A stretch of 64,000 bases of DNA from Candidatus Pacearchaeota archaeon. GTDB taxonomy: Archaea; Nanobdellota; Nanobdellia; Pacearchaeales; GW2011-AR1. Below are positions 40,176-61,600 of this stretch, in pieces. Under the pieces are notes generated by a model. The model saw only the letters and a list, made by a program, of their open reading frames with translations. It was not told the origin of the DNA and made no database searches. Position 1 is the first letter of the stretch. Each line of letters starts with the position of its first letter. Position numbers and translations under genes: made by a program. The stretch covers positions 7,823 to 71,822 of the forward strand of contig JBAZOZ010000001.1 of NCBI GenBank assembly GCA_041648455.1. Direction: 5' to 3'.

Positions 40176-40301
40176 ATGAAAATAAGAAATTTTCAATCAC
40201 GTCAGAAATCCTCTAGATTTCTGAACGCCATCCAAATTGTGAAATTTGGATGTTTAAACACCCACACAACACGGCGTCACAGACCCGTGTTTAAATAAAA
40301 T
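40176..40301 (+). ncRNA. ~126-nt three-hairpin intergenic element (type C), paralog of 39131..39265; also readable as a 40-codon ORF
   Basis: Same first 21 nt (ATGAAAATAAGAAATTTTCAA). Hairpins TCAGAAATC/GATTTCTGA and CATCCAAATT/AATTTGGATG. Confidence 0.45.
40253..40297 (+). promoter_or_regulatory. palindromic box TTTAAACAC...ACACGGCGTCAC...CCGTGTTTAAATA (copy 3 of 3), abutting the rps13 ATG
   Basis: See 24136..24180. Confidence 0.5.
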
Positions 40302-45834: not shown

Positions 45835-46137
45835 ATGGGTAAGGGATTAGCAATAACTGGATTTATACTTTCATTAATTTCTTTGATTATTTCTTCGATT
45901 TTGTTTTTTGCGGCATTATCTATAAATTCGAATTGGGGGTTTATTGGTCTTAGTTTTATGGAGTCTAGTTTTATTTTAGTTATAGTTTTGATAAATTTAT
46001 TATTAGCTATTATTGGATTTATTATAAATTTGATTGTTTTAATAAAGAAATTGGAAGGAAAAAGTTTTGCTATTGTGGGGATAATTTTTAATCTTTTAAT
46101 GGTGATGTCGAACCTTATTCCTCCAATTGCCAATTAG
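45835..46137 (+). CDS. small 3-TM membrane protein
   Basis: 100 aa, highly hydrophobic. Confidence 0.35.
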   Translation: MGKGLAITGFILSLISLIISSILFFAALSINSNWGFIGLSFMESSFILVIVLINLLLAIIGFIINLIVLIKKLEGKSFAIVGIIFNLLMVMSNLIPPIAN

Positions 46138-46149
46138 ATTATAATTATT

Positions 46150-46686
46150 CTATAATTTTTTACTCAATCTTTCAAGTTTATTCTGAACGTGATTAAATAG
46201 GGTGGATGATACTATAGGTTGATGATTGCCGGGATGAATCATGCCGTTAAATTTTATCTTTCCTATATAGGTAAAGTTTTTTAATATTTTCTTTAATCCG
46301 TTAACCGAAAAAGTGTGTTTCTTTGCTAATTGGGTTAAACTTATATTTGTTGTGAGAAATTCTTCGAAAATCTCTTCAACTTCCCTATAGTTTTCAGCAG
46401 GAATAAGTCTCCCTTTTTCTATTTTATAGCCGAAAGGGACTCTGGACATTAATTCACCCTTCTGGGCTTTTTGAATCATCCCTTTTTTCTGGTTCTCTCC
46501 AAAAAAAACCAAGTGTTTTCTAAATGTCTCTAACATAACTCCATCAACCTTTTCATTAAGATATTCCTTAAAAGAATCTTCATTATCTGGAGCAAATTTA
46601 AAGCAAATAACACAAAGGGGGTGGTTATATTTCATTTTTGTCTCACATTCATAACCACATTTTGAACATTTTGTTTTTTCTGACAT
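46150..46686 (-). CDS. zinc-ribbon + 'Recombinase'-domain protein lacking a resolvase catalytic domain
   Basis: N-terminal CSKCGYEC...CVIC. C-terminal VPFGYKIEKGRLIPAENYREVEEIFEEFL...SLTQLAKKHTFSVNGLKKILKNFTYIGKIKFNGMIHPGNHQPIVSSTLFNHVQNKL follows the serine-recombinase 'Recombinase' (PF07508-like) pattern. Confidence 0.45.
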   Translation of the reverse strand: MSEKTKCSKCGYECETKMKYNHPLCVICFKFAPDNEDSFKEYLNEKVDGVMLETFRKHLVFFGENQKKGMIQKAQKGELMSRVPFGYKIEKGRLIPAENYREVEEIFEEFLTTNISLTQLAKKHTFSVNGLKKILKNFTYIGKIKFNGMIHPGNHQPIVSSTLFNHVQNKLERLSKKL

Positions 46687-46744
46687 TTTGAAAATTTTGT
46701 TTCTTTAATTTTGAGATATCCAAGAATTCTTAATTCTTGGTATT

Positions 46745-47608
46745 TTATACAACCTTTACCTCTTTTTTCATTAACTCATCTAATGGAGATTTTATCTTTT
46801 TTAATTCTTCTGATGATACATGAGCATAGATCTGAGTAGTGGACAAATCTGCATGTCCTAAAAGCTCTTGAATTTTCCTAATATCAACTCCATTTTCTAA
46901 GAGATGTGTTGCAAAACTATGCCTTAAAGTATGACAATGTACATCTTTTTTTATGCCTGCTTTTTTTGAAGCTTTATTTACAATCTTCTGAAGATTTCTT
47001 GAAGAAAGTTTTCCTTTTGGTCCTGTAAATAAATATTCTTGGTTTTCTTTTTTTTGTTGCACTATTTGTTTTTTCAAATCATTAGATAAGAATTCGGGTA
47101 TATTAAACATCCTATCTTTTTTTCCTTTTCCCTGCCTTATAGTTCCTATTTTCTCCTCAAAATTTAATTCTTTCATTTGTAGGTTAACAAGCTCAGAAAC
47201 ACGCAAACCAATTGCATACATTAAGGAAATCATTAGTTTAGATTTTTTATTCTCTGTAGCGTCGATAATCATAGTAATTTCCTCTTTTGTTAAAACTGTA
47301 GGTAACTTTTTTTCTCTTTTTGGACGTTTAATTCCGGCTGTTGGGTCTTTTCCTAAAACATTACCGTACGCATATTTTAGTGCAGATAAAAAAAGAATTA
47401 TAGATGTTGATGAATTATTTGAAAGATTTTCTGAAAGATAATATTTTACATCATTACTAGTAATTTCATCAGGGTTTTTGTTTACAAATTTCAAGAATCT
47501 TTCATTTGAGTTTAAATAATTTCTAAGAGTGTATGGAGAATTTTTTGATATTCTTAATTCAATCCTTGTCTTTTCTAAAAATTCGTTGGAGGTTAGCTTG
47601 TTTTCCAT
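46745..47608 (-). CDS. tyrosine recombinase / integrase (XerC/D-like)
   Basis: GLRVSELVNL (catalytic R). HCHTLRHSFATHLLENGVDIRKIQELLGHADLSTTQIYAHV (H-x-x-R ... Y). Confidence 0.85.
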   Translation of the reverse strand: MENKLTSNEFLEKTRIELRISKNSPYTLRNYLNSNERFLKFVNKNPDEITSNDVKYYLSENLSNNSSTSIILFLSALKYAYGNVLGKDPTAGIKRPKREKKLPTVLTKEEITMIIDATENKKSKLMISLMYAIGLRVSELVNLQMKELNFEEKIGTIRQGKGKKDRMFNIPEFLSNDLKKQIVQQKKENQEYLFTGPKGKLSSRNLQKIVNKASKKAGIKKDVHCHTLRHSFATHLLENGVDIRKIQELLGHADLSTTQIYAHVSSEELKKIKSPLDELMKKEVKVV

Positions 47609-48252
47609 AGATTTTTCCAGAGTTTATTTTTGAATAACTGTGAGTTTGTTTTGAATTGAATTACTTTTATTCCAATCTTCTTAGCTGGAAAAAGATTCCA
47701 TTTTTGATTATCAATAAATAAGCATTCTTTTGGGGGCAAATCTAACTTCTCTAAGATTAATTTATAGATTTTGGGATTTGGTTTTCTAATGCCAACTTCA
47801 TAAGATATAACGACCAGGTTAAATTTTTTATAGAGTTTTTTAGGCATTACTGCATTTCTTGAAATAAGCCATTGATCAGACAAAATAGCTATTTTATAAC
47901 CTATCTGTTTAAGCTTAAACGCCTGTTTGAACAGCTGTTCGTTTTGCTTAAAATTATGTCTATAGGCATCAATAATTATCTTTTCTAATTTCATTGAAGA
48001 TATTTTGTTATTTTTAGCTATTATTTTTAATGCTTTTTCTCCAGATATTTTTCCTTCTACAGCATCTGAATAGCTAGAATCAATAGAATCAAACCATTGG
48101 TCTATAGAAATATTAAGTTTCTTTGCAATATATTCATGGACTCCTTTGGTTCTTTCATGTTTTTGTTTTGGAGAAGGTTTATTTCCTAAAGCCAATACTC
48201 CACCTACATCAAAGATTACTGCCTGAATGTCTGAACTCTTTCCTCTCTTCAT
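47593..48252 (-). CDS. HAD-superfamily hydrolase
   Basis: AVIFDVGGVL (DxDx(V/T) motif I). Overlaps the integrase start by 16 nt. Confidence 0.6.
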   Translation of the reverse strand: MKRGKSSDIQAVIFDVGGVLALGNKPSPKQKHERTKGVHEYIAKKLNISIDQWFDSIDSSYSDAVEGKISGEKALKIIAKNNKISSMKLEKIIIDAYRHNFKQNEQLFKQAFKLKQIGYKIAILSDQWLISRNAVMPKKLYKKFNLVVISYEVGIRKPNPKIYKLILEKLDLPPKECLFIDNQKWNLFPAKKIGIKVIQFKTNSQLFKNKLWKNLWKTS

Positions 48253-48314
48253 AAAATGAATTGTACGAACTTGTTTAAATATGTTTTGTTAAAAATTAAA
48301 ATAAGGTGATTAAA

Positions 48315-48794
48315 TTAAAATTTATTTGAATTAAAATCAATTTTTATATCTTCAGGAAGCTTGAATCCCTTTTGTTTTAATATATCTCTTATTTCTCTTC
48401 TAAACTTGAAATCATGAATCATTTTATGATGATTTGGACAAAGTCCAATAAAATTTTCTTCTAAATTATTCTTATTATTTTCATCTAAGTGGTGCAAATC
48501 TACAATTTTATCAAACCCACAAACAACACATTTTTCTGTTATTTTTTTATAGAGTTCTGTAGAAATATTATGTCTTTTATTTCTAGACCAATCTTTATTT
48601 TTCTGCAAATGAAAAACAAAATTATAGCACCCCGGACATAATCCTTTCGAATGTAATGCCATTTCTCTGCCACAGCGTTTGCAAATCATCTTTTTTGGTT
48701 TCCAAGATAATTTCCTGTAACAGTTGAAACAATATCCTTTAGCATGATGTTCTTTTTCCTTTTTGCAGCTAGGACAAATAATCTTCGCGCTCAT
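48315..48794 (-). CDS. HNH endonuclease with Cys4 zinc ribbons
   Basis: CPSCKKE...CFNCY, CKRCGRE...CPGCY, then CVVCGFDKIVDLHHLDENNKNNLEENFIGLCPNHHKMIH (HNH core). Confidence 0.7.
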   Translation of the reverse strand: MSAKIICPSCKKEKEHHAKGYCFNCYRKLSWKPKKMICKRCGREMALHSKGLCPGCYNFVFHLQKNKDWSRNKRHNISTELYKKITEKCVVCGFDKIVDLHHLDENNKNNLEENFIGLCPNHHKMIHDFKFRREIRDILKQKGFKLPEDIKIDFNSNKF

Positions 48795-48929
48795 GAATAT
48801 GAGAAAAGATTGGATTATAAAAAAAGATGTATTAATTTTGGAATAATAACGTTCGCATATAGACAAAAAGCGAATTACCGACAATACATCTTGTGCGTAG
48901 TTTTTTGTGTAGAAGTGATTTTTAGATAA

Positions 48930-49238
48930 TTATAGGGGTATTTTGCATTCTCTTATGGTATTTTCTAGTGATTCTGGTAACTTAGGTTGGGTTTGTGCAT
49001 CTTGGGATTTTCTCTTGGGAACATACTCTTCATCCTGCCAGTGATCGTTAATTTCCAATAGGCCTTCTCTCCCACTCATGAATTTTGCTAGAATTTGTGG
49101 TGAACGAGGGTGGGGTCTCTCCGCTTCTTTCTGATTAAGATATTTTATGTCTAATACCTTATATTCATCATCTGAACAAACAAAGGTACGATCCTTAATT
49201 CCTCCAAATAAAGCATAGTCTCTCAATGTTTTTACCAT
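48930..49238 (-). CDS. hypothetical protein
   Basis: 102 aa. No recognisable motif. Confidence 0.3.
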   Translation of the reverse strand: MVKTLRDYALFGGIKDRTFVCSDDEYKVLDIKYLNQKEAERPHPRSPQILAKFMSGREGLLEINDHWQDEEYVPKRKSQDAQTQPKLPESLENTIRECKIPL

Positions 49239-49327
49239 CTTTTATCCAATATTCTCGGGTTTTTAAGAATTTCTATAGAAAAATAGCTATTTTCCTCTCT
49301 TTTGTGCACATAGGTTAGGTTCATGCA

Positions 49328-49498
49328 TTAGCCAAAAGGTGATAAAAGAATATTGTTTACACTTAGTAAGCCAAGAATTCCCGCAATAACCAAATATAAT
49401 CCAACTGCATAACGAAGAAATTTTGGAAATGCTAATATCAAAATACCAACAATTATAGCTAAAATTGCAACAATATTTAAAACAACTGAAATGGCCAT
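49328..49498 (-). CDS. 56-aa two-TM mini membrane protein
   Basis: MAISVVLNIVAILAIIVGILILAF...GILGLLSVNNILLSPFG. Below the ORF-track size cutoff. Confidence 0.3.
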   Translation of the reverse strand: MAISVVLNIVAILAIIVGILILAFPKFLRYAVGLYLVIAGILGLLSVNNILLSPFG

Positions 49499-49604
49499 AT
49501 TATTCTATGTGTTTAAAGTTTTTAAATCTTATTATAGGGGGCTTTGTCCGGAGTTCCAAAAATAAAACCGAAAAATAATTATTCTGAAGATAATTAGATG
49601 GGAT

Positions 49605-50534
49605 ATGTATCAACAAATTATCCCATCTAAATTTAATAATCAAATGGAAGAGCAGTTAATTAAACTTTTCCATGAGTCTGATTTACCATTACATTTTAAC
49701 AAAACTGGAAATAAGGAATTTACAAATTATCAAAGAGTTTCTTTAATCATTTTATTTCACCGAAGCAAAAAATCAATTAGGGATTTTATCGACGAGGTTT
49801 CCGAATCAAAATGGATTTCTTATCTCGGATTGAAGAAAATTCCAAAGAAAAGCACCTTGCATGATTGGTTGAAAATTTTCGACTTGAAAATAATAAGAGA
49901 AATTTGCAAGGTGCTTTTGCCGACAGAGATTAAAGTAACTGCAATCGATGGAACCGGATTTGATTCATGGCAAAGGTCGAGGCATTATGAAAAAAGAGCT
50001 GAAGAAATAAAACCTCTTCCTAAGATGCCTTATTTTAAAACATGCCTTTTTATCGACGTGGGAACAAAATCAATAATTGATTTTGAAATTGTTCTGCATC
50101 ATGAACATGATGTAAAAATGGCGGAGAGAATTTTTAAAAGAAATAAACTAGAAAATATTTGGGGGTTGGGAGATAAGGGTTTTGATTCTGAAAATTTGCA
50201 CGAAATTGCTCGTGCAAATGGAATTATATTTTATGCTCCAGTTCGAAGGATGAATAAAAGAGCATTAAGCAAAAAGAAACCAAAAGGAAAATACCGACGA
50301 GAATGTATCGAAGTTCCAGATTTTGCTGGGAAAAGAAGTTTAGTTGAAAATGTGAATTCTGTTTTAAAAAGAACGCAAATTCATTTTCTAAGAAGCAAGA
50401 AAGACATTATGAAAGAAAGAGAATTTGGCTGGCAAATTGTTTTATATAATATTAAAAGAAAAATAAAAGTTTCATCTTTAGGAAAAATTCAAACTTTTAT
50501 TTTTTGGAAATTTAGAATTTTATTTCATTCCTGA
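49605..50534 (+). CDS. DDE-type transposase (IS4/IS5-superfamily-like)
   Basis: VTAIDGTGFDS (D1), GLGDKGFDSENL (D2) and the downstream ...NSVLKRTQ region give DDE_Tnp_1-like spacing. Confidence 0.6.
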   Translation: MYQQIIPSKFNNQMEEQLIKLFHESDLPLHFNKTGNKEFTNYQRVSLIILFHRSKKSIRDFIDEVSESKWISYLGLKKIPKKSTLHDWLKIFDLKIIREICKVLLPTEIKVTAIDGTGFDSWQRSRHYEKRAEEIKPLPKMPYFKTCLFIDVGTKSIIDFEIVLHHEHDVKMAERIFKRNKLENIWGLGDKGFDSENLHEIARANGIIFYAPVRRMNKRALSKKKPKGKYRRECIEVPDFAGKRSLVENVNSVLKRTQIHFLRSKKDIMKEREFGWQIVLYNIKRKIKVSSLGKIQTFIFWKFRILFHS

Positions 50535-50722
50535 CAGAGCCTATAGGGTGTAGTTTTTGCAGTATTTTTGATTAATTTCTTTCGTTTTTGAGAAATGTTG
50601 TGCACTTAGGTTAACTTAGTTAAAATGTGGTGGAGATTGAGAATATCATTGAAATGTGTTCAGGGAGAAATTTAAGATAAAAAAGAAGTGAAAATAAAAG
50701 AGTAAGGAAAAAAAGAATGATT

Positions 50723-50890
50723 TTATCTTTTCTTTTTACTATAGTTTCTAATAAGTTTTCCTACACCTATTATAAGGACACCTATAGCAATTAACCAATC
50801 ATTGTACTGAGCAAGTTGATCAACACCTAGCAAAGGTAAGACCAAAAGGACACCAATGATTGTTACAACCCATGCCGTCAATTTTGCCAT
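50723..50890 (-). CDS. 55-aa two-TM mini membrane protein
   Basis: MAKLTAWVVTIIGVLLVLPLLGVDQLAQYNDWLIAIGVLIIGVGKLIRNYSKKKR. Confidence 0.3.
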   Translation of the reverse strand: MAKLTAWVVTIIGVLLVLPLLGVDQLAQYNDWLIAIGVLIIGVGKLIRNYSKKKR

Positions 50891-51040
50891 CTTAACACCC
50901 TCCTTTAATCCATATTAAGGGCGAGAATGGATTATAAATCTTTCCAATATTGTGCACTTAGGTTAACTAAGTATCTGTTGGATATATGTTGGAATGTGGA
51001 ATTATGTGTTGGAAAGAAAGATTTTTTATAGGTGTTTGTT

Positions 51041-51200
51041 GGTTTTATGGGTGTTTAAATTGGTGTTTAAGATTTTTATCGTCGGAAAAAAATTAATGAG
51101 ATTTATTTAATTTAAATAGTTAGCTGTATTATTTTGTTGAATTTTGTATTTTTTTAATTAAATCTCTTGGGTTTTATGGGTGTTTAATGGTGTTTAAACA
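51041..51200 (+). repeat. two ~30-nt iteron-like direct repeats GGTTTTATGGGTGTTTAA(AT)TGGTGTTTAA about 130 nt apart
   Basis: Copies at 51041-51070 and 51169-51200. TGTTGG x3 upstream (50978-51020). Confidence 0.6.
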
Positions 51201-51310
51201 GGCTGTTTTCTATATTTTTTTAGAACAAACACCCAATATTCACACACAAAAACATCGAAAAATATACAAACTGATTCAAATTCCTCGTCGATAAAAATAA
51301 TCTTCTATCG

Positions 51311-51958
51311 ATGGGCAAAAAGATTTTTAAAGTATCTTTTCTAATTGTTTATATGGTTTGGTGGCTTTTTGGGACTAAAGGAGAGGTTGAACGTGTTGAA
51401 GAAGAAACAAAAAAAGGATTTGAGTTAGTAAAAAAAGACATGAACGCCATAAGTGAATGGATTAAACACCTGGATTCTGAAAAAAATATGAATAAAAAAA
51501 ATATTGAGAGCCTAAAAGAAAGTTTGTCGTCGATAAATGAAGAAATTGAAGGTGTAAAAAATGTTCTTTCATTAATGAATGATCTAAAGCCGAGAGCTAG
51601 ATTTAAACAAAACAAACAACAACTAGATAAACAGACAGCTGTTTATGCTGTCCAAACAGCTGTCCAAACAGCTGTCCAAACACCAAATTTAGACCAATTT
51701 TCTATTACTGAACGGGCAATTATTTGGATCTTGCTAAACAATGAAATGAAATTGAGCTATGATGATTTGGCGGCGATACTTGGGAAAGAAAAATCAACTA
51801 TAAGGGGACAAATAAACAGCATAAAACAAAAAAGTGAAGGTATGTTGGAAGAACAAATAGAGAAAAATGGCAAAAAGAGAGTATTTATAGCTGAACAAGT
51901 CAGGGAAAAACTCTTAAGAAAGCAAAAAGTGAGAGTTAAAAATAATAAAAATATCTAA
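51311..51958 (+). CDS. coiled-coil / tandem-repeat / C-terminal winged-helix protein
   Basis: N-terminal TM/coiled coil. (QTAV)x3 linker encoded by a 12-nt repeat. C-terminal ERAIIWILLNNEMKLSYDDLAAILGKEKSTIRGQINSIKQK is wHTH-like. Confidence 0.5.
   Translation: MGKKIFKVSFLIVYMVWWLFGTKGEVERVEEETKKGFELVKKDMNAISEWIKHLDSEKNMNKKNIESLKESLSSINEEIEGVKNVLSLMNDLKPRARFKQNKQQLDKQTAVYAVQTAVQTAVQTPNLDQFSITERAIIWILLNNEMKLSYDDLAAILGKEKSTIRGQINSIKQKSEGMLEEQIEKNGKKRVFIAEQVREKLLRKQKVRVKNNKNI
51633..51682 (+). repeat. 12-nt tandem repeat CAAACAGCTGTC (about 3.5 copies) inside CDS
   Basis: Read directly from the sequence. Encodes AVQTAVQTAVQT. Confidence 0.8.
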
Positions 51959-52101
51959 AAAAAGGGAAAAATAGATTTAAAAAAAGTTTAAATGAGAGTC
52001 ATGTGGTTTGATTAAGAGAAAAATGAGATAAAGTTTAAAGAAAGTAGTTAGTAAATTTGAAGAAAACCAATTAAAAATTATTCGGTGAAGGGAATAATTG
52101 G

Positions 52102-52887
52102 TTAAATATCTTTTAAATGTAATATTGTTTGCAAAGAAGCTATTTTTTTAAGATTTTTGGAAATGGAAAGACGAATATTTTTGTTGTTTATCTTGCTTTT
52201 TTCGAGGGGAATTTCTTTTTTCAGCAATCTTCCAACATAATCCCTAATAGAACTTTCAGTTAGGTTTAATTTATCTGAGATAGATTTATAGTCGGCAAAC
52301 CCGTGCTCTTCTTCTAGCTGATATATTGTCGAGAAGATTAATAACTCTTGATCGGTTAATTTTTTGAATTTTAATCTAATTTCCTTCTTTAAGGTATCTA
52401 AAGAATCCAAGAGGTTATAGGCATTTTCTATTGAATTTTCTTTATTGTGCGAACCTTTATTTATTGATTTGTTTGTCTGTTGGTCTGTCTGTCTGTCTGT
52501 TGGAACCCTTTCATTTCCAGTGGAAATATCTAAAATTTGTCCTTTTAAAGAGCTAATATCTGCTGGATGTGCTGGAATTATCTGTTGATGTGCTGGAATT
52601 ATCTGTTGATGTGCTGGAATTATCTGTTGATGTGCTGGAATTCCTTCTATTTGGAAAATTGGCCTATTTGGAGAATATAATTGTTTTTTATCTTGTTTTA
52701 ACTCTTCAAGAATTTTTAGAAGATTTGAATTGACTTCTGCTAATTGCTTGATTAATTCTATGATCTCTGACATCTTCTCTCTTGTTTCAATAATGGCATT
52801 CTCAAACAAATTGTTCTCTTTTTTTAAATAGTCAATATCTTGCTTAATTTTTTGAAATGCCTCTTTCAGTTGATCTTCTTTCTCCAT
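52102..52887 (-). CDS. coiled-coil / tandem-repeat / C-terminal winged-helix protein (paralogous architecture to 51311..51958)
   Basis: N-terminal coiled coil. (IPAHQQ)x4 from a perfect 21-nt repeat. TDRQTDQQT from a CTGT-rich repeat. C-terminal LTDQELLIFSTIYQLEEEHGFADYKSISDKLNLTESSIRDYVGRLLKK is wHTH-like. Confidence 0.5.
   Translation of the reverse strand: MEKEDQLKEAFQKIKQDIDYLKKENNLFENAIIETREKMSEIIELIKQLAEVNSNLLKILEELKQDKKQLYSPNRPIFQIEGIPAHQQIIPAHQQIIPAHQQIIPAHPADISSLKGQILDISTGNERVPTDRQTDQQTNKSINKGSHNKENSIENAYNLLDSLDTLKKEIRLKFKKLTDQELLIFSTIYQLEEEHGFADYKSISDKLNLTESSIRDYVGRLLKKEIPLEKSKINNKNIRLSISKNLKKIASLQTILHLKDI
52561..52645 (+). repeat. perfect 21-nt tandem repeat (GATGTGCTGGAATTATCTGTT) x4 inside CDS
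   Basis: Read directly from the sequence. Confidence 0.85.
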
Positions 52888-52945
52888 CAGAATTTAAAAG
52901 AATAGAAATATAAAAATGTTGAGATAACAGAATATATACTACAAA

Positions 52946-53212
52946 TTATTGATAACTTTTATAAGTTTGATATGCTAAATTTGAAAGATTCCATCTGGCT
53001 CTTCTTATATAAAAATTGCCTTTATTATTTTTCTTTATTTCTATAACTAGTTTTTTTTCTTTTAGTTCTAAAAGGAGTTTTTTTATGAATTCTTCATCTC
53101 TCGCTATCCCTTGAGCTATTTGAGAAGTAAATAGGGCTTTTGGTGTAGATCCATATAAAAAAGCCAAGATTTGTTCAAAAATTTTTTCTTTCTTTTTTTC
53201 TGAAATCCTCAT
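52946..53212 (-). CDS. small winged-helix DNA-binding protein
   Basis: 88 aa. ILAFLYGSTPKALFTSQIAQGIARDEEFIKKLLLELKEKKLV is a wHTH (PadR/MarR-like) pattern. Confidence 0.45.
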   Translation of the reverse strand: MRISEKKKEKIFEQILAFLYGSTPKALFTSQIAQGIARDEEFIKKLLLELKEKKLVIEIKKNNKGNFYIRRARWNLSNLAYQTYKSYQ

Positions 53213-53271
53213 AAAAAAATAAGGGGATTGTATTTAAAAATATATTTAAAAATATATTCAACAATAAAAAA

Positions 53272-53694
53272 TCAATTTTTTTCTGAATTTTCTGGATTTT
53301 TTAGAACGGGCATAGGGATATGATAAGGGAGATTCATTTCCTCTTCAAACTCCAATGCTTTTATAGAAGACTTTCTCATTATGATATTAAACAAAGATAT
53401 CCTAAAATCGTCGGGAATTTCCTTATTTTCCCATTTTTTCAATAGGTCTTTAGTTATCTTAGAATCTAAAGATATCAAAAGATTTCCTGAAAATTCTATT
53501 TTTGCTACTTGTGGTTCGTAATTAATAATATAATTAAATTTAATCCCTAAAAGTTCTTCCTTTGATTTAATCGCTTCTGTTTCAACAATGCTTATATCAG
53601 AAATATCTATATTTGTATTAATTTTTAATTCACCTAACTTCTCCGGAAATCTTTCTACATTTATTTTATTAAAATTAAATCCAAGTAATTTCAT
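53272..53694 (-). CDS. hypothetical protein
   Basis: 140 aa. No recognisable motif. Confidence 0.3.
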   Translation of the reverse strand: MKLLGFNFNKINVERFPEKLGELKINTNIDISDISIVETEAIKSKEELLGIKFNYIINYEPQVAKIEFSGNLLISLDSKITKDLLKKWENKEIPDDFRISLFNIIMRKSSIKALEFEEEMNLPYHIPMPVLKNPENSEKN

Positions 53695-53765
53695 TTTATT
53701 TTGAAAAGATAGATGTTTTTAAGTATTTAGATTATTCGAAAATATTATCCAGACTAAATAATAAA

Positions 53766-54026
53766 TTAAATTAAATCTTCTTCAGAAACGATGACAAAAT
53801 CACCAATGGCAATTATGGCTGAGTAAGGTATCAAAAATTCATCGGATTTTGTTTTTTCTAAATTAAGATTTTTTGTATAGGGTGTAGGATCTTTGATTAC
53901 CATATTTATTAATTCTCCCGAACGTGTTTCAAAAGTTACATCCTTAAGAAATCCTAATCTCTTTCCTTCTTTAGTTACAATCATTTTTCCAGTTATTGAA
54001 CTAAACGGATGTTTTTCTGTTTGCAT
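53766..54026 (-). CDS. PRC-barrel domain protein
   Basis: ITGKMIVTKEGKRLGFLKDVTFETRSGELINMVI is the PRC barrel core. Confidence 0.55.
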   Translation of the reverse strand: MQTEKHPFSSITGKMIVTKEGKRLGFLKDVTFETRSGELINMVIKDPTPYTKNLNLEKTKSDEFLIPYSAIIAIGDFVIVSEEDLI

Positions 54027-54518
<492 letters not shown>

Positions 54519-55727
54519 ATGGCACCGAACATCGATCAAATTTTTGATTCTTTTGATAAGAATAGCGTGTTTAAAGACAAATTTATTTTACAAACAACCT
54601 ATAAACCCTCGGAAATTCCTCACCGAGATATGCAAATAAAACAAATAGCATCTATTCTCGCTCCAGTTTTGAGGGGAGAAAGAACGAGTAATTTATTTGT
54701 TTATGGAAAGACCGGAACTGGAAAAACCTTGTCAATTCAATATGTAAGAGACGAGCTTTTAAAGAGAGCAGAAAAGAATTTAGATTTTAAATTAAAAATA
54801 GAATATTTAAATTGTAAACTAAAAAAAGTTTCTGATACTGAATATAGAATTCTTGCAGAACTTATTAAAAAATTAGGAGGAAATGTTCCAATAACTGGAC
54901 TTCCCACAGAATCGGTTTATAGTAAATTTATTGAACTTATAGATAAAGAAAAACTATTATTGGTGTTAGTTTTAGATGAAATTGATCAAGCAGTTAAAAA
55001 AATTTCAGATGGTTTCTTATATAATCTTACCCGGCTTAATTCAGAGTTGTCTAAAAGTCAGATTTGTCTTGTTGGAATAAGCAATGATTTAACATTTTTA
55101 GATGAAATTGATCCAAGAATTAGGAGTTCCCTTAGTGAGGAAGAAATTGTTTTTCCTCCATATAATGCTTTACAATTACAAGATATTTTGAATAAACGGG
55201 CCAAGGAGGCATTTAAAGAGAATATTATTCAAGATGGTGTTATTGCTAAATGTGCTGCTTTTGCTGCAAGAGAGCACGGAGATGCAAGAAGAGCCTTAGA
55301 TTTATTAAGGATTGCCGGAGAATTAGCGGAGAGAGATAGTTCACCCAAAATTCTTGTAAAGCATATAGATGAAGCAAACAATAAAATTGAAAGAGATAAG
55401 ATCTTAGACGTTATTAAAACAGAGCCGAAGCAATTTCAAATAGTTTTATCTTCAATAATTCAACTTTCCGAGAAGCAAAAGGAATTAATTTTTACTGGAG
55501 ATATTTATAATCTTTATGAAGATATTTGCAGACAAAATCGGTGTGAGATTTTAACGCAAAGAAGGGTTTCAGATATAATTCAAGAATTTGATATGCTTGG
55601 AATTATTAATGTTAAAGTAATTTCAAAAGGCAGAGGAGGAAGAATGAGGGAGATTAAATTGGCCATTTCGAAAAATATTGCAGAAAAAGCTAAAGAAATT
55701 ATTAAGGATTCGTTAAATTATAGTTAA
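54519..55727 (+). CDS. cdc6: Orc1/Cdc6 replication initiator
   Basis: Walker A GKTGTGKT. Walker B LVLVLDEID. C-terminal winged helix. 402 aa. Confidence 0.9.
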   Translation: MAPNIDQIFDSFDKNSVFKDKFILQTTYKPSEIPHRDMQIKQIASILAPVLRGERTSNLFVYGKTGTGKTLSIQYVRDELLKRAEKNLDFKLKIEYLNCKLKKVSDTEYRILAELIKKLGGNVPITGLPTESVYSKFIELIDKEKLLLVLVLDEIDQAVKKISDGFLYNLTRLNSELSKSQICLVGISNDLTFLDEIDPRIRSSLSEEEIVFPPYNALQLQDILNKRAKEAFKENIIQDGVIAKCAAFAAREHGDARRALDLLRIAGELAERDSSPKILVKHIDEANNKIERDKILDVIKTEPKQFQIVLSSIIQLSEKQKELIFTGDIYNLYEDICRQNRCEILTQRRVSDIIQEFDMLGIINVKVISKGRGGRMREIKLAISKNIAEKAKEIIKDSLNYS

Positions 55728-55811
55728 TTTTTAATAAGATGGAATTCCTTTTATAATTTAAATTTAGAAAACAAAGATTATCTAAAATCAAAAATTTTAT
55801 ATTAAATTAAA

Positions 55812-57377
55812 ATGGATTCAGAAGAAATATTCAAATTTTGTTTGGAAAATGGACTCTTAGTGGACAAAGAAGTTTTAAAATTGTTCAGTGAATCAGGGGA
55901 CATAGAATCGGCTAAATTAATTATCCGAAAAATTAAAAATCATACTCAACAAAAAATAATTACAAAAAATCTTTTTTATGAAAATAAAGACAAGGTTAAT
56001 CAATTCTTTGATGATCTTCCAGAAGAAAATAGAAAAGGTTTAGAAAAATTAAAAATCAAACTTGGGTTGAGTATAGAAATTTCACGTGAAATTTCTACGA
56101 CGGAAATAAAAAAAGATGTTCAAGAAAATATAGATGGTTCTGTTAGGATCACTACAATGAATCAAAGTTTTAGCAAGAAAATTGAAGTTTCGGATTTTGT
56201 CAAATACTTTAGGGGGCGACTAAATGAAATGAAAAGTTATTTGCAGGAAAATTCTCAATTAGATGGACTCACTTCCATAAATAAAATTTCCGGAGAAAAA
56301 CAAAATTTTTCAATTATAGGGTTAGTTTATGAAAAAAGAATTACTAAAAATAAAAACATCTTGTTAGATATAGAAGATTTGACTGGAAGGGTTAAGGTTC
56401 TTATAAGTCAAAATAAAGAAGATCTTTACAAAAAGGCAGAAGATATAACTCTTGATGCGGTTTTAGGTTTTAAGGGAAGTGGGAACAGGGAAATTATCTT
56501 TGCAAATGAAATTGTTTTTCCTGATTCAATAATTCAAGAGAGAAAAAAATCTCCATTCGAAGAATATGCTTTATTTACAGGAGATTTGCACATTGGCAGT
56601 AAATTATTCATGAAAGAAAATTTTTTGAAATTTATCGATTATCTTAATGGAAAAATTCTCGATACACCTGAAGTTTCTAAAATTAAATATCTATTTATCG
56701 TTGGGGATTTGATTGCTGGTGTTGGGATTTATCCCGGGCAGGAAGAGGATTTAGAATTTCCAGATATTGAAAGACAATTTGAAGAAGCAGCAAGGATTTT
56801 GAGTAAAATAAGAAAAGATATTAAAATAATTATTTCTCCAGGCAATCACGATGCATTGAGAATTATGGAACCCCAGCCACTTTTCGACGAGAAATACGCC
56901 TGGCCACTTTATGAATTGGAAAATGTAGTTCTGACGGGAAATCCGGTTTCAGTCAATATTGGCGCCAGAAAAGGATTTAATGGATTTAATGTTTTGACTT
57001 ATCATGGTTATTCTTATCATTATTATGCAAATGTTATTCCTAAATTAATTATAGAAAAATCTGTTCATACTCCGGAAAAAATCATGGCTTATCTTTTGAA
57101 ATATCGTCATTTAGCACCTACACATTCTTCTACATTATATTTTCCTTCTGAAGAAGATCAGTTTATTATCAGAGATATTCCAGATATTTTTGTTTCTGGA
57201 CACACCCATAAAAGTGCCGTGACATATTACAATAATATTTTGATAATTTCAAGTTCCAGCTGGGAAAGTTTGACTCCCTTTCAGGAGAAGATGGGGAATC
57301 AGCCAGATTTTTGCAAGGTTCCGATGTTTAATCTTAAAACCAGGGGAATTAAGGTTTTGGATTTTGAGGGAGAATGA
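55812..57377 (+). CDS. DNA polymerase II (PolD) small subunit DP1
   Basis: Calcineurin-like phosphoesterase motifs GDLHIG, VGDLIAG, PGNHD and GHTH. 521 aa. Confidence 0.9.
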   Translation: MDSEEIFKFCLENGLLVDKEVLKLFSESGDIESAKLIIRKIKNHTQQKIITKNLFYENKDKVNQFFDDLPEENRKGLEKLKIKLGLSIEISREISTTEIKKDVQENIDGSVRITTMNQSFSKKIEVSDFVKYFRGRLNEMKSYLQENSQLDGLTSINKISGEKQNFSIIGLVYEKRITKNKNILLDIEDLTGRVKVLISQNKEDLYKKAEDITLDAVLGFKGSGNREIIFANEIVFPDSIIQERKKSPFEEYALFTGDLHIGSKLFMKENFLKFIDYLNGKILDTPEVSKIKYLFIVGDLIAGVGIYPGQEEDLEFPDIERQFEEAARILSKIRKDIKIIISPGNHDALRIMEPQPLFDEKYAWPLYELENVVLTGNPVSVNIGARKGFNGFNVLTYHGYSYHYYANVIPKLIIEKSVHTPEKIMAYLLKYRHLAPTHSSTLYFPSEEDQFIIRDIPDIFVSGHTHKSAVTYYNNILIISSSSWESLTPFQEKMGNQPDFCKVPMFNLKTRGIKVLDFEGE

Positions 57378-57505
57378 AAATACAAAAATTAAAAATTTTT
57401 GTTCTTCCACATGGAAAAGATGAAAATCAAGAATTTTCATTCTTACAAAACAAGAAATTTTGTAAGCAAAAAATTTTCCATGCCATTCAAAACAAGAAGT
57501 TTTGA
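57374..57505 (+). other. 43-codon mini-ORF / repeat element (MKIQKLKIFVLPHGK...), paralog of 24503..24712
   Basis: ATG overlaps the DP1 TGA. First 45 nt nearly identical to 24503-24547. Confidence 0.4.
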
Positions 57506-57689
57506 AGGAAATAAGAAGTTTTAGAAGAAATAAGAAATTTTTTATACATCAAAAATTGTTTTTTGCGTAAACTCCCAGTTTTAACTCGTGAGAAAGCAAA
57601 AACAATTTTTGGGATGTTCAAGAACTCGAGACACGCCCCGGAATTTATTCCGAGGGTTCTTGACATTTCCAAATCAAGAAAATTTGAAA

Positions 57690-58661
57690 ATGAAAATAGA
57701 AGATAGAGTTTATGGAGAAGAAGAAATTGAAGAAGAAGTTTTAATTGATTTAATTAATTGTAAATCTGTTCAACGATTAAGGGGATTGGCTCAATATGGA
57801 TTTCCCGACGAATATTATCCTAAATGCGGTTTTTCAAGATATGAACATTCTTTAGGAGTTTTAATTTCTCTTCGAAAGTTGGGAGCTGATTTAACTGAAC
57901 AAATTGCGGGTTTATTACATGATGTTTCTCATACATCTTTTTCTCATGTTATTGATTGGGCAATTGGGAATCCAGAAAAAGAAGATTTTCAAGATAAAAA
58001 CCATTTAAATGTAATAAAGAATTCCGAAATACCTCAGATCCTAAATAGATATGGTTTTGATTACAAGGTTGTTTCTAGAATTGAAGATTTTCATTTATTG
58101 GAAAAGGAAGCTCCGATTTTATGTGTTGATAGAGTTGATTATACCTTAAGAGAAATAGTCTTTGATGGAGATGCGGATTTATCTAAAAAATTTTTATTTA
58201 ATTTGAAAAATAGCAATAACGATTTATTTTTTGTTGGAAGAGATATTGCTGATGAATTTGGGAGAGCATATGCCAAACTGAATAGAGAACATTGGGCAGG
58301 AGTGGAAGCTAGAGCAAGATATTATCTTTTGGCAGATATTTTAAAAAGATCTTTCGAGAGAGGAATAATTACTGAAAAAGATATATACAAAACAGATTAC
58401 GAATTGATAGATCAACTTTATGAGTTTGGTACTTCAGACATGATTAAGGATTTAACTTTTTTGAAAAGAAAGAAAGTTGCTGTGTCTTGCAATAATGGAA
58501 ATGGAATTTTGATGAGGAAAAAATATCGACGAGTGGACCCGCAAATATCTGAAGATGGAAGACTAAAAAGATTAAGCGAGGTATCTGAAGATTATAGATT
58601 ATTTTTAGAGAATGAAAAATCTTTTTTGGAGGAAGCTAAATATATAAAATTTTTAAAATGA
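57690..58661 (+). CDS. HD-domain metal-dependent phosphohydrolase
   Basis: HSLGVLISLRKLGADL...AGLLHDVSHTSFSHV (H...HD). The ORF is open in frame back to 57588, but that extension is repeat/hairpin sequence. Confidence 0.7.
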   Translation: MKIEDRVYGEEEIEEEVLIDLINCKSVQRLRGLAQYGFPDEYYPKCGFSRYEHSLGVLISLRKLGADLTEQIAGLLHDVSHTSFSHVIDWAIGNPEKEDFQDKNHLNVIKNSEIPQILNRYGFDYKVVSRIEDFHLLEKEAPILCVDRVDYTLREIVFDGDADLSKKFLFNLKNSNNDLFFVGRDIADEFGRAYAKLNREHWAGVEARARYYLLADILKRSFERGIITEKDIYKTDYELIDQLYEFGTSDMIKDLTFLKRKKVAVSCNNGNGILMRKKYRRVDPQISEDGRLKRLSEVSEDYRLFLENEKSFLEEAKYIKFLK

Positions 58662-58665
58662 AAAA

Positions 58666-61600
58666 ATGAACACCCAAACATATTTTGAAAATATTGAAAG
58701 AGAAGTGAGAAATGTTTACGCCATTGCAGAAGAAGCTAAAAAAACCGGGCTGGACCCTGTGGATAAGGTTGAAATTCCATTGGCGATGACAATGGCTTCA
58801 AAAGTTGTTAGTTTGATTTCTACGATTTATCCCCAGATGGAAAATTCAGGAATTGACAAAAGAATTTTGGAACTTGAAAAAGAATATGGAAAATTAGATG
58901 CGACGGTTATTTTTAAAATTGCAGAAGAGGTTGCGAAACAAAAATTTTGCAAATTCTCTTCGCTGTTGGAAGCTATTGATGCCGGAATTAGAATTGGTTT
59001 TGCGTATAATACTTTAGGGGTTGTTTCTTCCCCTATTGAAGGATTCACTCAACTTAAATTAGGAAGAACTAGAGAAGGAAAAGAATATTTTATTGCTTAT
59101 TTTTCCGGGCCTATAAGGAGTGCAGGAACAACTGCATCTTGCTTGGTTTTGATTTTGATAGATTATCTTCGGGAAATGTTTGGTTTTGCAAAATATGATC
59201 CGAGTGAGGAGGAAATAAAAAGATATGTTACAGAAAATGCAGATTATCATGAAAGAGTTACCAACTTGCAATATTTTCCTAGTGAAGAAGAAATAATTTT
59301 TCTTGCCAGAAATCTTCCAATTCAACTTGCTGGAGAGCCGACAGAGAAAATGGAAGTCAGTAATTACAAAAATTTGCCGAGAGTGGAGACAAATTATATT
59401 CGTGGAGGAATGTGCTTGATTTTTTCGGAAGGGCTTGCACAAAAGGCTGCGAAAGGTTTTCGACTTTTGAGCGGAGCAAAGAAAAATGGAATTAGTTCTA
59501 CTGGTTTTGATTTTTTACAAGAGTATATTAAATTACATGAAAAAAGAAATCTTGGAAAGTTAAGTTCGGAATCTCCGACATATATAAAAGATTTAGTTGC
59601 CGGAAGACCTGTTTTCGGGCATCCTTCTAGGTCTGGAGGATTTAGATTCAGATATGGAAGAAGCAGGGTGAGTGGATTCAGTGCCACTTCTTTTCATCCA
59701 GCCACGATGGCAATTACAGATAATTTTATTGCGATTGGGACTCAATTGAAAATCGAGAAACCAACAAAAGGGTGTGCGGCAACAGTTTGTGATTCTATCG
59801 ACGGCCCAATTGTTAAATTATTTAATGGAAGTGTTAAAAAAATTAAAGATAAAGACGAGGCTAAGAAATTATACCCGGATGTCGAAGAAATTATTTATCT
59901 TGGAGATATTTTATTTCCTTTTTCCGATTTGGCAAATCGAAATGCAAAACTCATCAACCCAGGGTATGTTGAGGAGTGGTGGAATTTAGAGTTAAAAGAA
60001 AAGGGATGCGAGGAAAAAATTGATTTTTATAATATTGGGTTTGAAAAAGCAGTTGAACTGAGCAAAAAATTTGAAATACCTTTTCATCCTAATTTTATTT
60101 TTTATTGGAGCCAAATTAATAAAGAAGAATTTTTGGGGTTGATTGAATGGCTTAAATTTTCAGTTATTCGAAATGGAAAATTAATTTTTCCTTATACAAA
60201 AAACGACAAAGAAAAATATGTCTTGGGAAAAAGAGCTTTAGAGTTAATTGGAGTAGAACATATGGTTGGTATAGAAAATGTTATTGTTGACGAAGAAATT
60301 TCCAATGCCCTTTTATTTAATTTGGGAATCGATTTTAATTGTTTTAATAGCGAGGAAATTTTTCTAAAAGATTTCATTATAGAATCTAAATTTTCTTTTG
60401 ACGATGACAAAAAAGTATTAGAATTTATAAATAATTGTTGTGAACTTGAAATAAAAGACAAGGCTGGAGAATTTATAGGATCTAGGATGGGGAGACCGGA
60501 AAAGGCAAAACTTAGAAAACTTGTTGGAAGTCCGAATGTCCTTTTTCCAGTTGGTGCTGAGGGCGGAAGATTGAGGAGCTTGCAGGCTGCGTGCGAGAAA
60601 GGAAAGGTGAATGGTATTTTCCCTATTTATTTTTGTGATAAATGTAAAAAAGAAACTATATATAAAATTTGTGAAAATTGCGGTGAAAAAACAAAAAAAT
60701 TATTTTATTGTAAAACATGTGACAAAAAATCTTTAGAATCTTGCAAAGAGCATACGGGTTTAAGATATGCTAACTTAAATTTGGATATTAATTATTATTT
60801 TGAAAAAGCAATTCATGGGCTTGGTTTGTCGAGGGAGGAGGTCCCTCTTTTGATTAAGGGGGTTAGAGGAACATTTTCTGGAAATCACGTTATGGAAAAT
60901 CTTGCCAAGGGAATTTTAAGGGCGAAATATGATTTGCAAGTTAATAAAGATGGAACAATTAGATTCGATGCAACTGAATTACCTCTAAGTCATTTTAAAC
61001 CAAAAGAAATTTCAGTTAGTATTGAAAAATTGAAGGAGCTCGGATATGAAAATGATATTTATGGAAAATTATTGAAGAATGAAGAACAAATTTTGGAATT
61101 AATGCCCCATGATATTTTGCTTCCAAGTGCGAAAGAATCTCCAGATGAGAGGGCAGATCATGTTTTTATGAAAATTTCCAAGTTTGTCGACGAGGAGCTC
61201 TTGAGATTTTATAAATTAAAAAGTTTTTACAATTTGGAGAAGAGAGAAGATCTTGTTGGACAGTTGGGAGTTTGCATGGCTCCGCATAATTGTGCGGGAG
61301 TTATCTGCAGGTTTATTGGTTTTTCAAATACCCAGGGACTTTTAGCAAGTCCATACATGCATGCAGCTATTCGACGAGATTGTGACGGAGATGAAGCTGC
61401 AATAATGTTGCTTTTGGATGTTTTATTAAATTTTTCTCGAGAATTTCTTCCAGGGCATCGAGGAGGAACGCAGGACGCTCCTTTAGTTTTGAATGCAAAG
61501 ATTGACGCTGGAGAAGTTGATGATCAAATTTTGGATTGGGAATTTGTTCCTGAAGGAAATTATCCATTAGAATTATATAGAAAAGCCGAACAACGATTTC

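Follow-up and report, generated by a model that had tools for sequence, protein, structure and literature searches.

In a window of 64,000 nucleotides from a Candidatus Pacearchaeota archaeon (a DPANN member with a G+C content of approximately 29%; the window is the whole stretch of DNA that was analysed), two convergent, origin-flanking genes, here called A and B, encode proteins whose disordered linkers probably carry cis-acting DNA elements, with the conserved repeat peptides of these linkers arising as by-products of translating that DNA. Under this proposal, the (x-V-Q-T)x3 peptide of A would be the reading of three TGTTCAAACA sites placed 12 bp apart, and the block ISTGNEGVPTDRQTDRQT of B would be the reading of an origin recognition box (ORB) of the form TTTCCAnnGGAAAT-n3-GGGG, followed by TTCCAACA and (ACAG)n. 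As both linkers are predicted to be disordered, they would be expected to tolerate such embedded elements. An earlier note on the same DNA had described A and B as a convergent pair with an N-terminal coiled coil, a repeat linker and a C-terminal winged helix, and this was borne out by the open reading frames (ORFs; coordinates of these and the other features are given in Table 1), by AlphaFold2 models and by Foldseek searches. The note had also taken the perfect linker repeats to signify contingency-type loci with length-variable linkers, a view that held for only one of the three repeats.

The primary evidence comes from coding-DNA alignments of 50 species for B and 68 species for A, in which the motif regions of both genes were conserved at synonymous positions and the remainder of each gene was not. 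Within the winged-helix domains synonymous change was saturated, and in that of B even the conserved residues showed codon entropy at the background level. In the B motif, each of seven four- or six-fold-degenerate codons was represented by one codon in 100% of the 50 species; the codons TCC, GGA, GGG, GTT, ACA and GAC were identical in 100% of species, including codons used in a minority of cases elsewhere (background shares of 17% for TCC, 29% for GGG and 47% for GTT), and the two-fold codons behaved likewise, with GAC invariant (100%, background 35%) and CAG nearly so (93-96%, background 33%). The modal-codon frequency of four- and six-fold residues in B was 1.00 inside the motif against 0.51 elsewhere (p = 2e-5), and the corresponding frequency for A was 0.91 inside the element, compared with 0.62 in the rest of the gene (p = 1e-4), with the codons GTA, ACT, GGA and GCA never used in the three repeat units of A across approximately 70 species. 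The fixation also extended to positions at which the residue itself varies: in B, I, F, V and L were all encoded as nTT and T, I, S, N and K all as Ann, with Ser as AGT, and the string TT TCC Ann GGA AAY was invariant while the amino acids changed; in A, the alternative residues G, A and P were encoded as GGT, GCT and CCT, i.e. all nnT. As the synonymous sites are frozen, rare codons included, against a background of saturated change elsewhere, these alignments indicate that selection in the motif regions of A and B acts on the DNA (or RNA) and not on the peptide.

The element within the linker of A is an array of TGTT/AACA half-sites with the nearly invariant family consensus AAACAg.TGTTTAtgCTGTtCAAACAG.TGTtCAAACAG.TGTtCAAACACC, in which each 12-nt unit consists of an invariant TGTTCAAACA and a variable spacer dinucleotide (GG, GC or CC). 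The same site type was found in the DNA upstream of A, where an operator-like palindrome contains the perfect palindrome TGTTTAAACA. The in-gene sites differ from TGTTTAAACA by a T to C change at the sole position that would give an in-frame TAA (GTT-TAA-ACA versus GTT-CAA-ACA); since GTT-TAA-ACA would set a stop codon in frame, TGTTCAAACA reads as the closest stop-free version of TGTTTAAACA. Across the family, sites matching TGTTYAAACA occurred approximately once per locus upstream of A, 119 times inside A in 78 loci, and only rarely elsewhere, while GTGTTYAA occurred both upstream of A, in approximately 75 loci, and inside A, at a spacing of 10-12 bp. In addition, the frozen WIKHL codons of A, TGGATTAAACACCT, constitute an inverted copy of the iteron, and 43 minus-strand matches fell at that position in the 78 loci.

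The iteron-like repeats that had been reported just upstream of A proved to be real, conserved cis-elements. Two exact copies of GGTTTTATGGGTGTTTAA were present as described, but there were four rather than three copies of TGTTGG. The 18-mer GGTTTTATGGGTGTTTAA was exact at 51041 and 51170 only, with one further match at 40254 carrying three mismatches; these three matches compare with 0.17 expected from shuffled sequences, and no shuffle reached three. TGTTTAAACAG-type sequences lay upstream of A in 50-54 of 68 species, and GGTGTTTAAACAGGCTGTTT in 55 of 77 species, in 30 of which it was positioned approximately 175 nt before the ATG; repeats of the GGTGTTTAA type lie ahead of GGTGTTTAAACAGGCTGTTT, and a T-rich, TATA-like stretch comes after it. 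These arrangements are consistent with a dimeric winged-helix protein that would bind both the in-gene TGTTCAAACA sites and the upstream TGTTTAAACA/GGTGTTTAA set. The nucleotide-level selection, the motif identities, the synteny and the fixed or variable copy numbers are shown directly by the data, whereas which proteins bind the elements of A and B, and to what effect, we infer from sequence; for the A-type sites this would be a protein that regulates or marks A specifically, with A itself the simplest and most likely candidate because the motif is almost confined to its own gene.

The element within the linker of B resembles the boxes of the neighbouring predicted origin. Its family consensus is aTTTCCAnnGGAAAt.aaGGGGtTcCaACAGACAgACAGACA (also written aTTTCCAnnGGAAAt.aaGGGGtT), which reads as TTTCCAnnGGAAAT-n3-GGGG, with the window copy being TTTCCACTGGAAATGAAAGGGTT (52504-52526, minus strand) and the GGGG string present in 65 of 66 B loci. 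The core TTTCCACTGGAAA, at 52514-52526, was exact in most of approximately 75 loci and conforms to the TTCCAnnGGAAA-type ORB dyad core. The B dyad shares 18 of 19 nt with the ORB1 core of Pyrococcus furiosus, and the B element has TTTCATTTCCAsTGGAA in common with both ORB1 and ORB2 of that species (PMC1904270). Within the 64 kb, the exact dyad TTTCCAnnGGAAA occurred in three places, namely in B and in the two plus-strand origin boxes, against 0.27 expected. The orientation of the B box is that of the left-hand origin box, and its distance to the predicted unwinding element is 1.6 kb. The origin region itself has the classical layout, with ORBs flanking an AT-rich stretch upstream of orc1/cdc6; its left-hand box is a one-mismatch variant of the dyad core, and the orc1-proximal box in 24 other species has the consensus tTTCCA.aGGAAAt..a.gtG.GgG. 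The B linker motif is therefore best described as an ORB-like initiator site and a candidate Orc1/Cdc6 site, at which Orc1/Cdc6 would bind as at an outlying origin site, in the manner of the Pyrococcus dp1 ORB3/mini-ORB cluster.

A second copy of the B-type composite, TTTCCAnnGGAAAnnnnGGGGCTTCGACA, was observed in at least four species (L018, L032, L066 and L073), where it lies after the palindrome but before the start of A, in the opposite orientation to the B copy and approximately 410-430 nt before the A motif; degenerate forms occurred in at least five more species, and the window has none. Neither the ORB composite nor the A repeat was found on viral contigs, such that a mobile or viral source of the motifs is not supported.

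Copy number divides the three linker repeats into fixed and variable classes. The 21-nt repeat was recovered with four copies, as previously noted, and the CTGT-rich repeat giving TDRQTDQQT was also present, as TGTC x 7.8; the 12-nt repeat exists, but in 3.0 rather than 3.5 copies, although a degenerate fourth unit precedes the array. An independent assembly of the same strain (L001; ENA ERZ27249422) aligned to window positions 46102-58893 (12.8 kb) with four differences in all, these being two single-nucleotide polymorphisms, a 6-bp change in the (AAT)n run of the origin region and the loss of 42 bp corresponding exactly to two 21-nt units of B, giving four copies in the window and two in L001 as judged from two short-read assemblies. 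Near-perfect, unrelated 21-nt arrays were found at the equivalent place in other lineages (L002, L056). The window array comprises three overlapping 35-nt copies of 100% identity, and each of its units contains TTCCAGCACA, which is related to the TYCSACASA motif seen across the family. This 21-nt (heptad) part of the B linker is the sole repeat that expands and contracts freely. In contrast, the xVQT unit of A numbered exactly three in 117 of 121 homologues, with 2.8-3.1 copies of the 12-nt array in essentially all 68 species, and the CTGT tract of B was the same in L001 as in the window. The TDRQTDQQT peptide forms part of the near-invariant block ISTGNEGVPTDRQTDRQT, and the underlying (ACAG)n was present at 7.5-10.8 copies in most species, with between-species changes in 12-nt steps; the xxQT units of B number two or three, and one in some homologues. 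Two of the three repeats are frozen at synonymous sites, which argues that they are conserved DNA elements and not slippage products.

These data bear directly on the possibility that A and B are contingency-type simple-sequence loci, in which ongoing slippage would generate variable linkers that tune both regulators. Such slippage would account for the two-unit difference between near-identical strains, for the independent arrays in L002 and L056, for the variable number of xxQT units in B, and for the co-variation of repeat units within species (GCT GTC x3, GGT GTT x2, ACG ACG), which points to concerted evolution. It would not account for a 12-nt repeat that keeps three units and a near-identical sequence in approximately 70 species, nor for the non-repetitive B motif (TCC Ann GGA AAT nnn GGG GTT), which is equally frozen and to which slippage does not apply. 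Further, repeat lengths of 12 and 21 nt, both divisible by three, preserve the reading frame, and frameshifted versions of B were not encountered, every B gene unbroken by a scaffold gap or contig end being in frame; the ORFs of the 66 B motifs ranged from 219 to 273 aa, except at a scaffold gap in L065 and a 164-aa ORF in L036. There is consequently no pointer to on/off phase variation, and a contingency function for the pair as a whole appears unlikely. The strain comparison is bounded by the available assemblies: a search of JGI metagenome contigs with the exact flank of the 21-nt array returned 0 matches, such that repeat-number heterogeneity rests on one strain pair together with the family-level data.

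Several observations weigh against the proposal that the linkers carry protein-binding DNA elements. For the copy-number comparison, there is the short-read basis already mentioned, and a scaffold gap (a run of N, positions 7185-7581 in the relative L065) that falls exactly over the ORB/ACAG tract of B, showing that assemblers struggle there. For the B box, the gap between G-string and dyad is approximately 3-4 nt, against approximately 6-7 nt in the archaeon's own origin boxes and approximately 9 nt in Pyrococcus, such that the contacts made by Orc1 could differ; nothing equivalent to the (ACAG)n tract accompanies the origin boxes, and another protein, e.g. B itself, might bind the box instead. 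For the A element, there is a strong folding signal: the window sequence reaches -22.1 kcal/mol (z = -4.4), and z lies between -3.3 and -6.4 across all 68 species. The position of the upstream palindrome outside the transcript of A is, moreover, a presumption.

The folding signal is an argument for selection at the RNA level, whereby mRNA structures, or sites for an RNA-binding regulator or small RNA, would control the translation or stability of A and B; the same A hairpin was also picked up on the minus strand by a scan for terminator-like structures. However, folding is built into any array of palindromic half-sites, perfect stems would depend on a central dinucleotide that varies (GG, GC, CC) without compensation, and the same motif recurs on the upstream side of a TATA-like stretch. 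For the B element no folding signal was obtained (z = 0.28), and no Rfam match was found in 50400-54600, even at E = 1. An RNA-level explanation is accordingly regarded as distinctly unlikely. Very unlikely is an explanation in which the peptides are functional short linear motifs, with their nucleotides held constant only through codon preference and the homogenisation of repeats: more than 100 homologues have the motifs without any amino-acid change, and all three frames of the tetranucleotide tract give the same cyclic TDRQ peptide, so that homogenisation and peptide selection together could hold (ACAG)n, but rare codons are fixed at single-copy positions, DNA-motif nucleotides stay fixed where the amino acid varies freely, and the motifs recur in non-coding DNA (the origin ORBs, the iterons upstream of A, and the B-type composite upstream of A in at least four species).

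If the linkers do carry cis-elements, a more far-reaching scenario can be envisaged, although it is an improbable one. A and B would together form an undescribed origin-proximal nucleoprotein system whose linkers captured regulatory DNA, each having originated by fusion of a coiled-coil gene with a winged-helix gene downstream of it, in which the translated intergenic control region (an initiator box or operator array) continued to work. The proteins would bind their own sites in the style of ParB/parS, with B binding or competing for ORB dyads and thereby modulating initiation by Orc1, and A tethering the origin to the membrane or the division machinery. The basis offered for tethering by A is its hydrophobic N-terminus MFxWFxGKK, which is membrane-targeting-like, and the conserved PRC-barrel operon nearby.

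Neither protein has a curated family assignment, despite 3176 homologues of A and more than 2000 of B. The true start of A is Met15 of the longest ORF, as family alignments place the conserved N-terminus MFxWFxGKK there. AlphaFold2 models built from alignments of approximately 120 sequences comprised, for A, a helix (residues 2-78), a low-confidence linker (79-117) and a winged helix (118-188), and for B, a helix (2-70), a low-confidence linker (71-148) and further helices with a winged helix (152-260). The predicted local distance difference test (pLDDT) scores were 84-97 for the winged-helix domains and below 50 for the linkers. In the remote-homology searches, Foldseek against the PDB matched the C-terminal domains of A and B to the MarR/ArsR-type regulators MepR, MarR, AbfR2 and CzrA (E = 3e-4 to 5e-3), whereas at the sequence level no Pfam or NCBIfam family passed its cut-off (best HTH_11 at 17.4 bits with a cut-off of 25, and Fe_dep_repress at 23.1 bits with a cut-off of 26) and no PDB relative was better than E = 0.002.

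A and B do not appear to be close paralogues, with a BLASTP E value of 0.018 and a profile-profile probability of 60% confined to the first helix; at best they may be distant relatives. A possible likeness of the A N-terminus to ESCRT-III or Noc-type N-termini was set aside, as neither a Snf7 match nor any other was obtained. A pattern scan that covered each GTDB species with a single genome detected relatives of A in 298 genomes, and the best 80 of these 298 carried labels that were nearly all Woese-, Pace- or Nanoarchaeota. The B product is 100% identical to a hypothetical protein (P0001) of 'Candidatus Pacearchaeota archaeon'. The closest protein match to A was 70% identical and no identical one was returned, though the 215-aa gene is called in L001; this may reflect a gap in the search index. 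No papers carrying the linker peptides of A or B were found in the literature.

Table 1. Positions of genes, repeats, candidate elements and origin features in the window
Feature	Position	Strand	Remarks
Gene A, longest ORF	51311-51958	+	215 aa
Gene A from conserved start	51353-51958	+	201 aa; ATG at 51353 is Met15 of the longest ORF
Gene B	52102-52887	-	261 aa
B N-terminal helix	52678-52884	-	AlphaFold2
B C-terminal helices and winged helix	52108-52434	-	AlphaFold2
TGTTGG x4, degenerate, iteron-like	50976-51041	+	sequence inspection
First iteron pair, GGTTTTATGGGTGTTTAA then TGGTGTTTAA	51041-51070	+	
Second exact GGTTTTATGGGTGTTTAA copy	51170-51187	+	abuts palindrome
Operator-like palindrome TGGTGTTTAAACAGGCTGTTT	51188-51208	.	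upstream of A; followed by a T-rich, TATA-like stretch
Perfect palindrome TGTTTAAACA	51191-51200		within TGGTGTTTAAACAGGCTGTTT
TCGTCGATAAA, second copy	51285-51295		upstream of A
Inverted iteron copy (AGGTGTTTAATCCA)	51458-51488	-	under the frozen WIKHLDSEKN codons of A
TCGTCGATAAA motif inside A	51527-51537	+	LSSI codons; Ser is TCG in 91% of species
Frozen element in A linker	51629-51693	+	TGTT/AACA half-site array, including 12-nt x3
12-nt repeat x 3.0	51647-51682		A linker; 100% identity; Tandem Repeats Finder
TGTC x 7.8	52470-52500		B linker; Tandem Repeats Finder
TTCCAACA then (ACAG)n	52470-52506	-	encodes PTDRQTDQQT; GAC, AGA, CAG, ACA frozen across species
ORB-like element TTTCCACTGGAAAT-GAA-AGGGTT	52504-52527	-	translates to ISTGNERV
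21-nt repeat x 4.0	52557-52642	-	B linker (IPAHQQI); Tandem Repeats Finder
Predicted chromosomal replication origin	54027-54518	.	upstream of orc1/cdc6; ORB layout
Origin ORB, left-hand	54136-54157	-	one-mismatch variant of dyad core
AT-rich stretch with (AAT)n run	54224-54279		between inverted ORBs
Origin ORB	54325-54346	+	exact dyad TTTCCAnnGGAAA
Origin ORB	54423-54449	+	exact dyad TTTCCAnnGGAAA

Profile searches of the window proteins identified Orc1/Cdc6 (54519-55727) and both PolD subunits as neighbours of A and B. The gene order is PolD-large <- PolD-small <- Orc1/Cdc6 <- intergenic region of approximately 500 bp -> PRC-barrel (86 aa) -> 137-140 aa protein -> small winged-helix protein (88-92 aa) -> B -> <- A, and this synteny was kept down to approximately 50% protein identity among the relatives compared. 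In the window, the origin-adjoining conserved operon occupies 52946-54026 on the minus strand and encodes the PRC-barrel protein (86 aa), a 140-aa protein without a family match and an 88-aa winged-helix protein (52946-53212); it sits upstream of B in every relative examined. PRC-barrel proteins are associated with archaeal cell division. GC skew tracks gene orientation and did not locate the origin, and nothing was found in the literature on ORBs in DPANN archaea, nor on origins or initiation control in these uncultured archaea.

The PolD large subunit is 1156 aa and without an intein in the window, and 1659 aa in the relative L003 (1-1890), with an intein giving Intein_splicing and LAGLIDADG matches. 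An IS5-family transposase gene (49605-50534) lies between the upstream region of A and the conserved neighbours beyond it (a HAD hydrolase and a XerA-like recombinase); it is present at this site in the window and L001, and absent from the equivalent place in the relatives L003, L005 and L006.

A number of further sequence features were observed in and around A. Extra A-type sites comprised TGTTCAAACA at 47924-47933 on the minus strand, within the HAD hydrolase gene, and an intergenic TGTTTAAACA at 40251-40260, and a weak cluster of A-type sites was seen approximately 3 kb upstream of A in approximately 14 of 64 loci. The motif TCGTCGATAAA matched seven times when one mismatch was allowed (1.0 expected); in addition to its copies in and upstream of A, this CG-containing motif occurs in the transposase gene (49785-49795, minus strand), and related TATCGTCGA/TCGACGG motifs lie upstream of A in many species. 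The 27-nt element AATrTTGTGCACTTAGGTTAACTwAGT, which contains a short palindrome, is present in two copies of 93% identity (50594-50620 and 50946-50972) flanking a 55-aa hydrophobic ORF (50723-50890, minus strand), and 46 of the 77 related loci contain its core TTGTGCACTTAGGTTA, which the position profile places upstream of A. A further frozen stretch, CAAAAAGTGAGAGTTAAA, lies at the 3' end of A (51923-51940); 64-69 of 77 species have it exactly, and within its KQKVRVK codons valine is GTG in every species (100%). A 15-nt match between 50997-51011 and the 21-nt unit was judged compatible with chance, and a sigma-70 promoter scan, a model not relevant to archaea, gave fewer sites than expected.

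The closest known counterpart of the B element is an ORB3/mini-ORB cluster of Pyrococcus, which lies within the coding sequence of dp1 (the PolD small subunit), is conserved in the Thermococcales and has been found bound to Cdc6 in vivo (Matsunaga et al. 2007, PMC1904270), such that intragenic ORBs near cdc6 have a precedent. Both cases have conserved boxes in a coding gene 1-2 kb from an oriC by cdc6, with the core TTTCATTTCCAsTGGAA. The putative B box differs in lying on the other side of the origin, in the disordered linker of a DNA-binding protein gene, in giving rise to a family-wide pseudo peptide motif, and in being fused to TTCCAACA(ACAG)n with a shorter G-string spacer. Beyond the dp1 case, the novel aspects are that the elements are embedded in linkers and create pseudo-motifs, that an ACAG tract is fused to the box, and that the neighbouring gene holds a paired iteron system. 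A canonical archaeal oriC has ORBs flanking an AT-rich unwinding element beside orc1/cdc6 (PMC4010727). The window region 54027-54518 has this same arrangement, and its dyad and G-string recur in the B element, which is, however, intragenic and 1.6 kb from the unwinding element. At oriC2 of Haloarcula hispanica, a downstream ORB cluster is reported to regulate negatively (Wu et al. 2014, cited in PMC4010727). There too, additional initiator boxes lie beyond the core origin and are proposed to be regulatory, but the lineage and ORB family differ, and a regulatory role of the B box is putative.

Parallels also exist outside the archaeal origins. Bacteria have parS sites inside spo0J/parB and DnaA boxes inside the dnaA and dnaN coding regions, which similarly are conserved protein-binding sites (here predicted) within the coding sequence of an origin-proximal DNA-binding gene; the proteins are unrelated, and the sites in A and B differ in filling a disordered linker and dictating its repeat peptide. 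Plasmid and partition systems, e.g. parC/ParR, have iteron or operator arrays that resemble the A array in consisting of short direct or inverted repeats at approximately one helical turn before the gene of a small dimeric DNA-binding protein; the A array, by contrast, lies partly in coding sequence, and its locus belongs to the chromosome and is retained in 298 species genomes. The phase-variable simple-sequence contingency loci of bacteria share perfect intragenic tandem repeats with A and B, as well as a difference between near-identical strains in the case of the 21-nt repeat, but the units of A and B keep the reading frame and two of the three repeats are evolutionarily fixed. The haloarchaeal 'oap' origin-associated genes were considered as relatives and rejected, as they constitute an unrelated GTPase system.

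These results provide testable origin sequences for DPANN archaea, with the element set present in at least 298 species genomes. They also offer candidates for experiment in the form of two uncharacterised, highly conserved families (more than 2000 and more than 3000 members) together with their likely DNA sites. That a conserved 'peptide motif' or 'protein repeat' may be the by-product of a DNA element calls for caution in annotating motifs and repeats and in calling contingency loci from perfect repeats. Should the embedded boxes prove functional, the architecture of the origin would be interlocked with gene content in these archaea, which would help to explain the stability of the conserved gene block.

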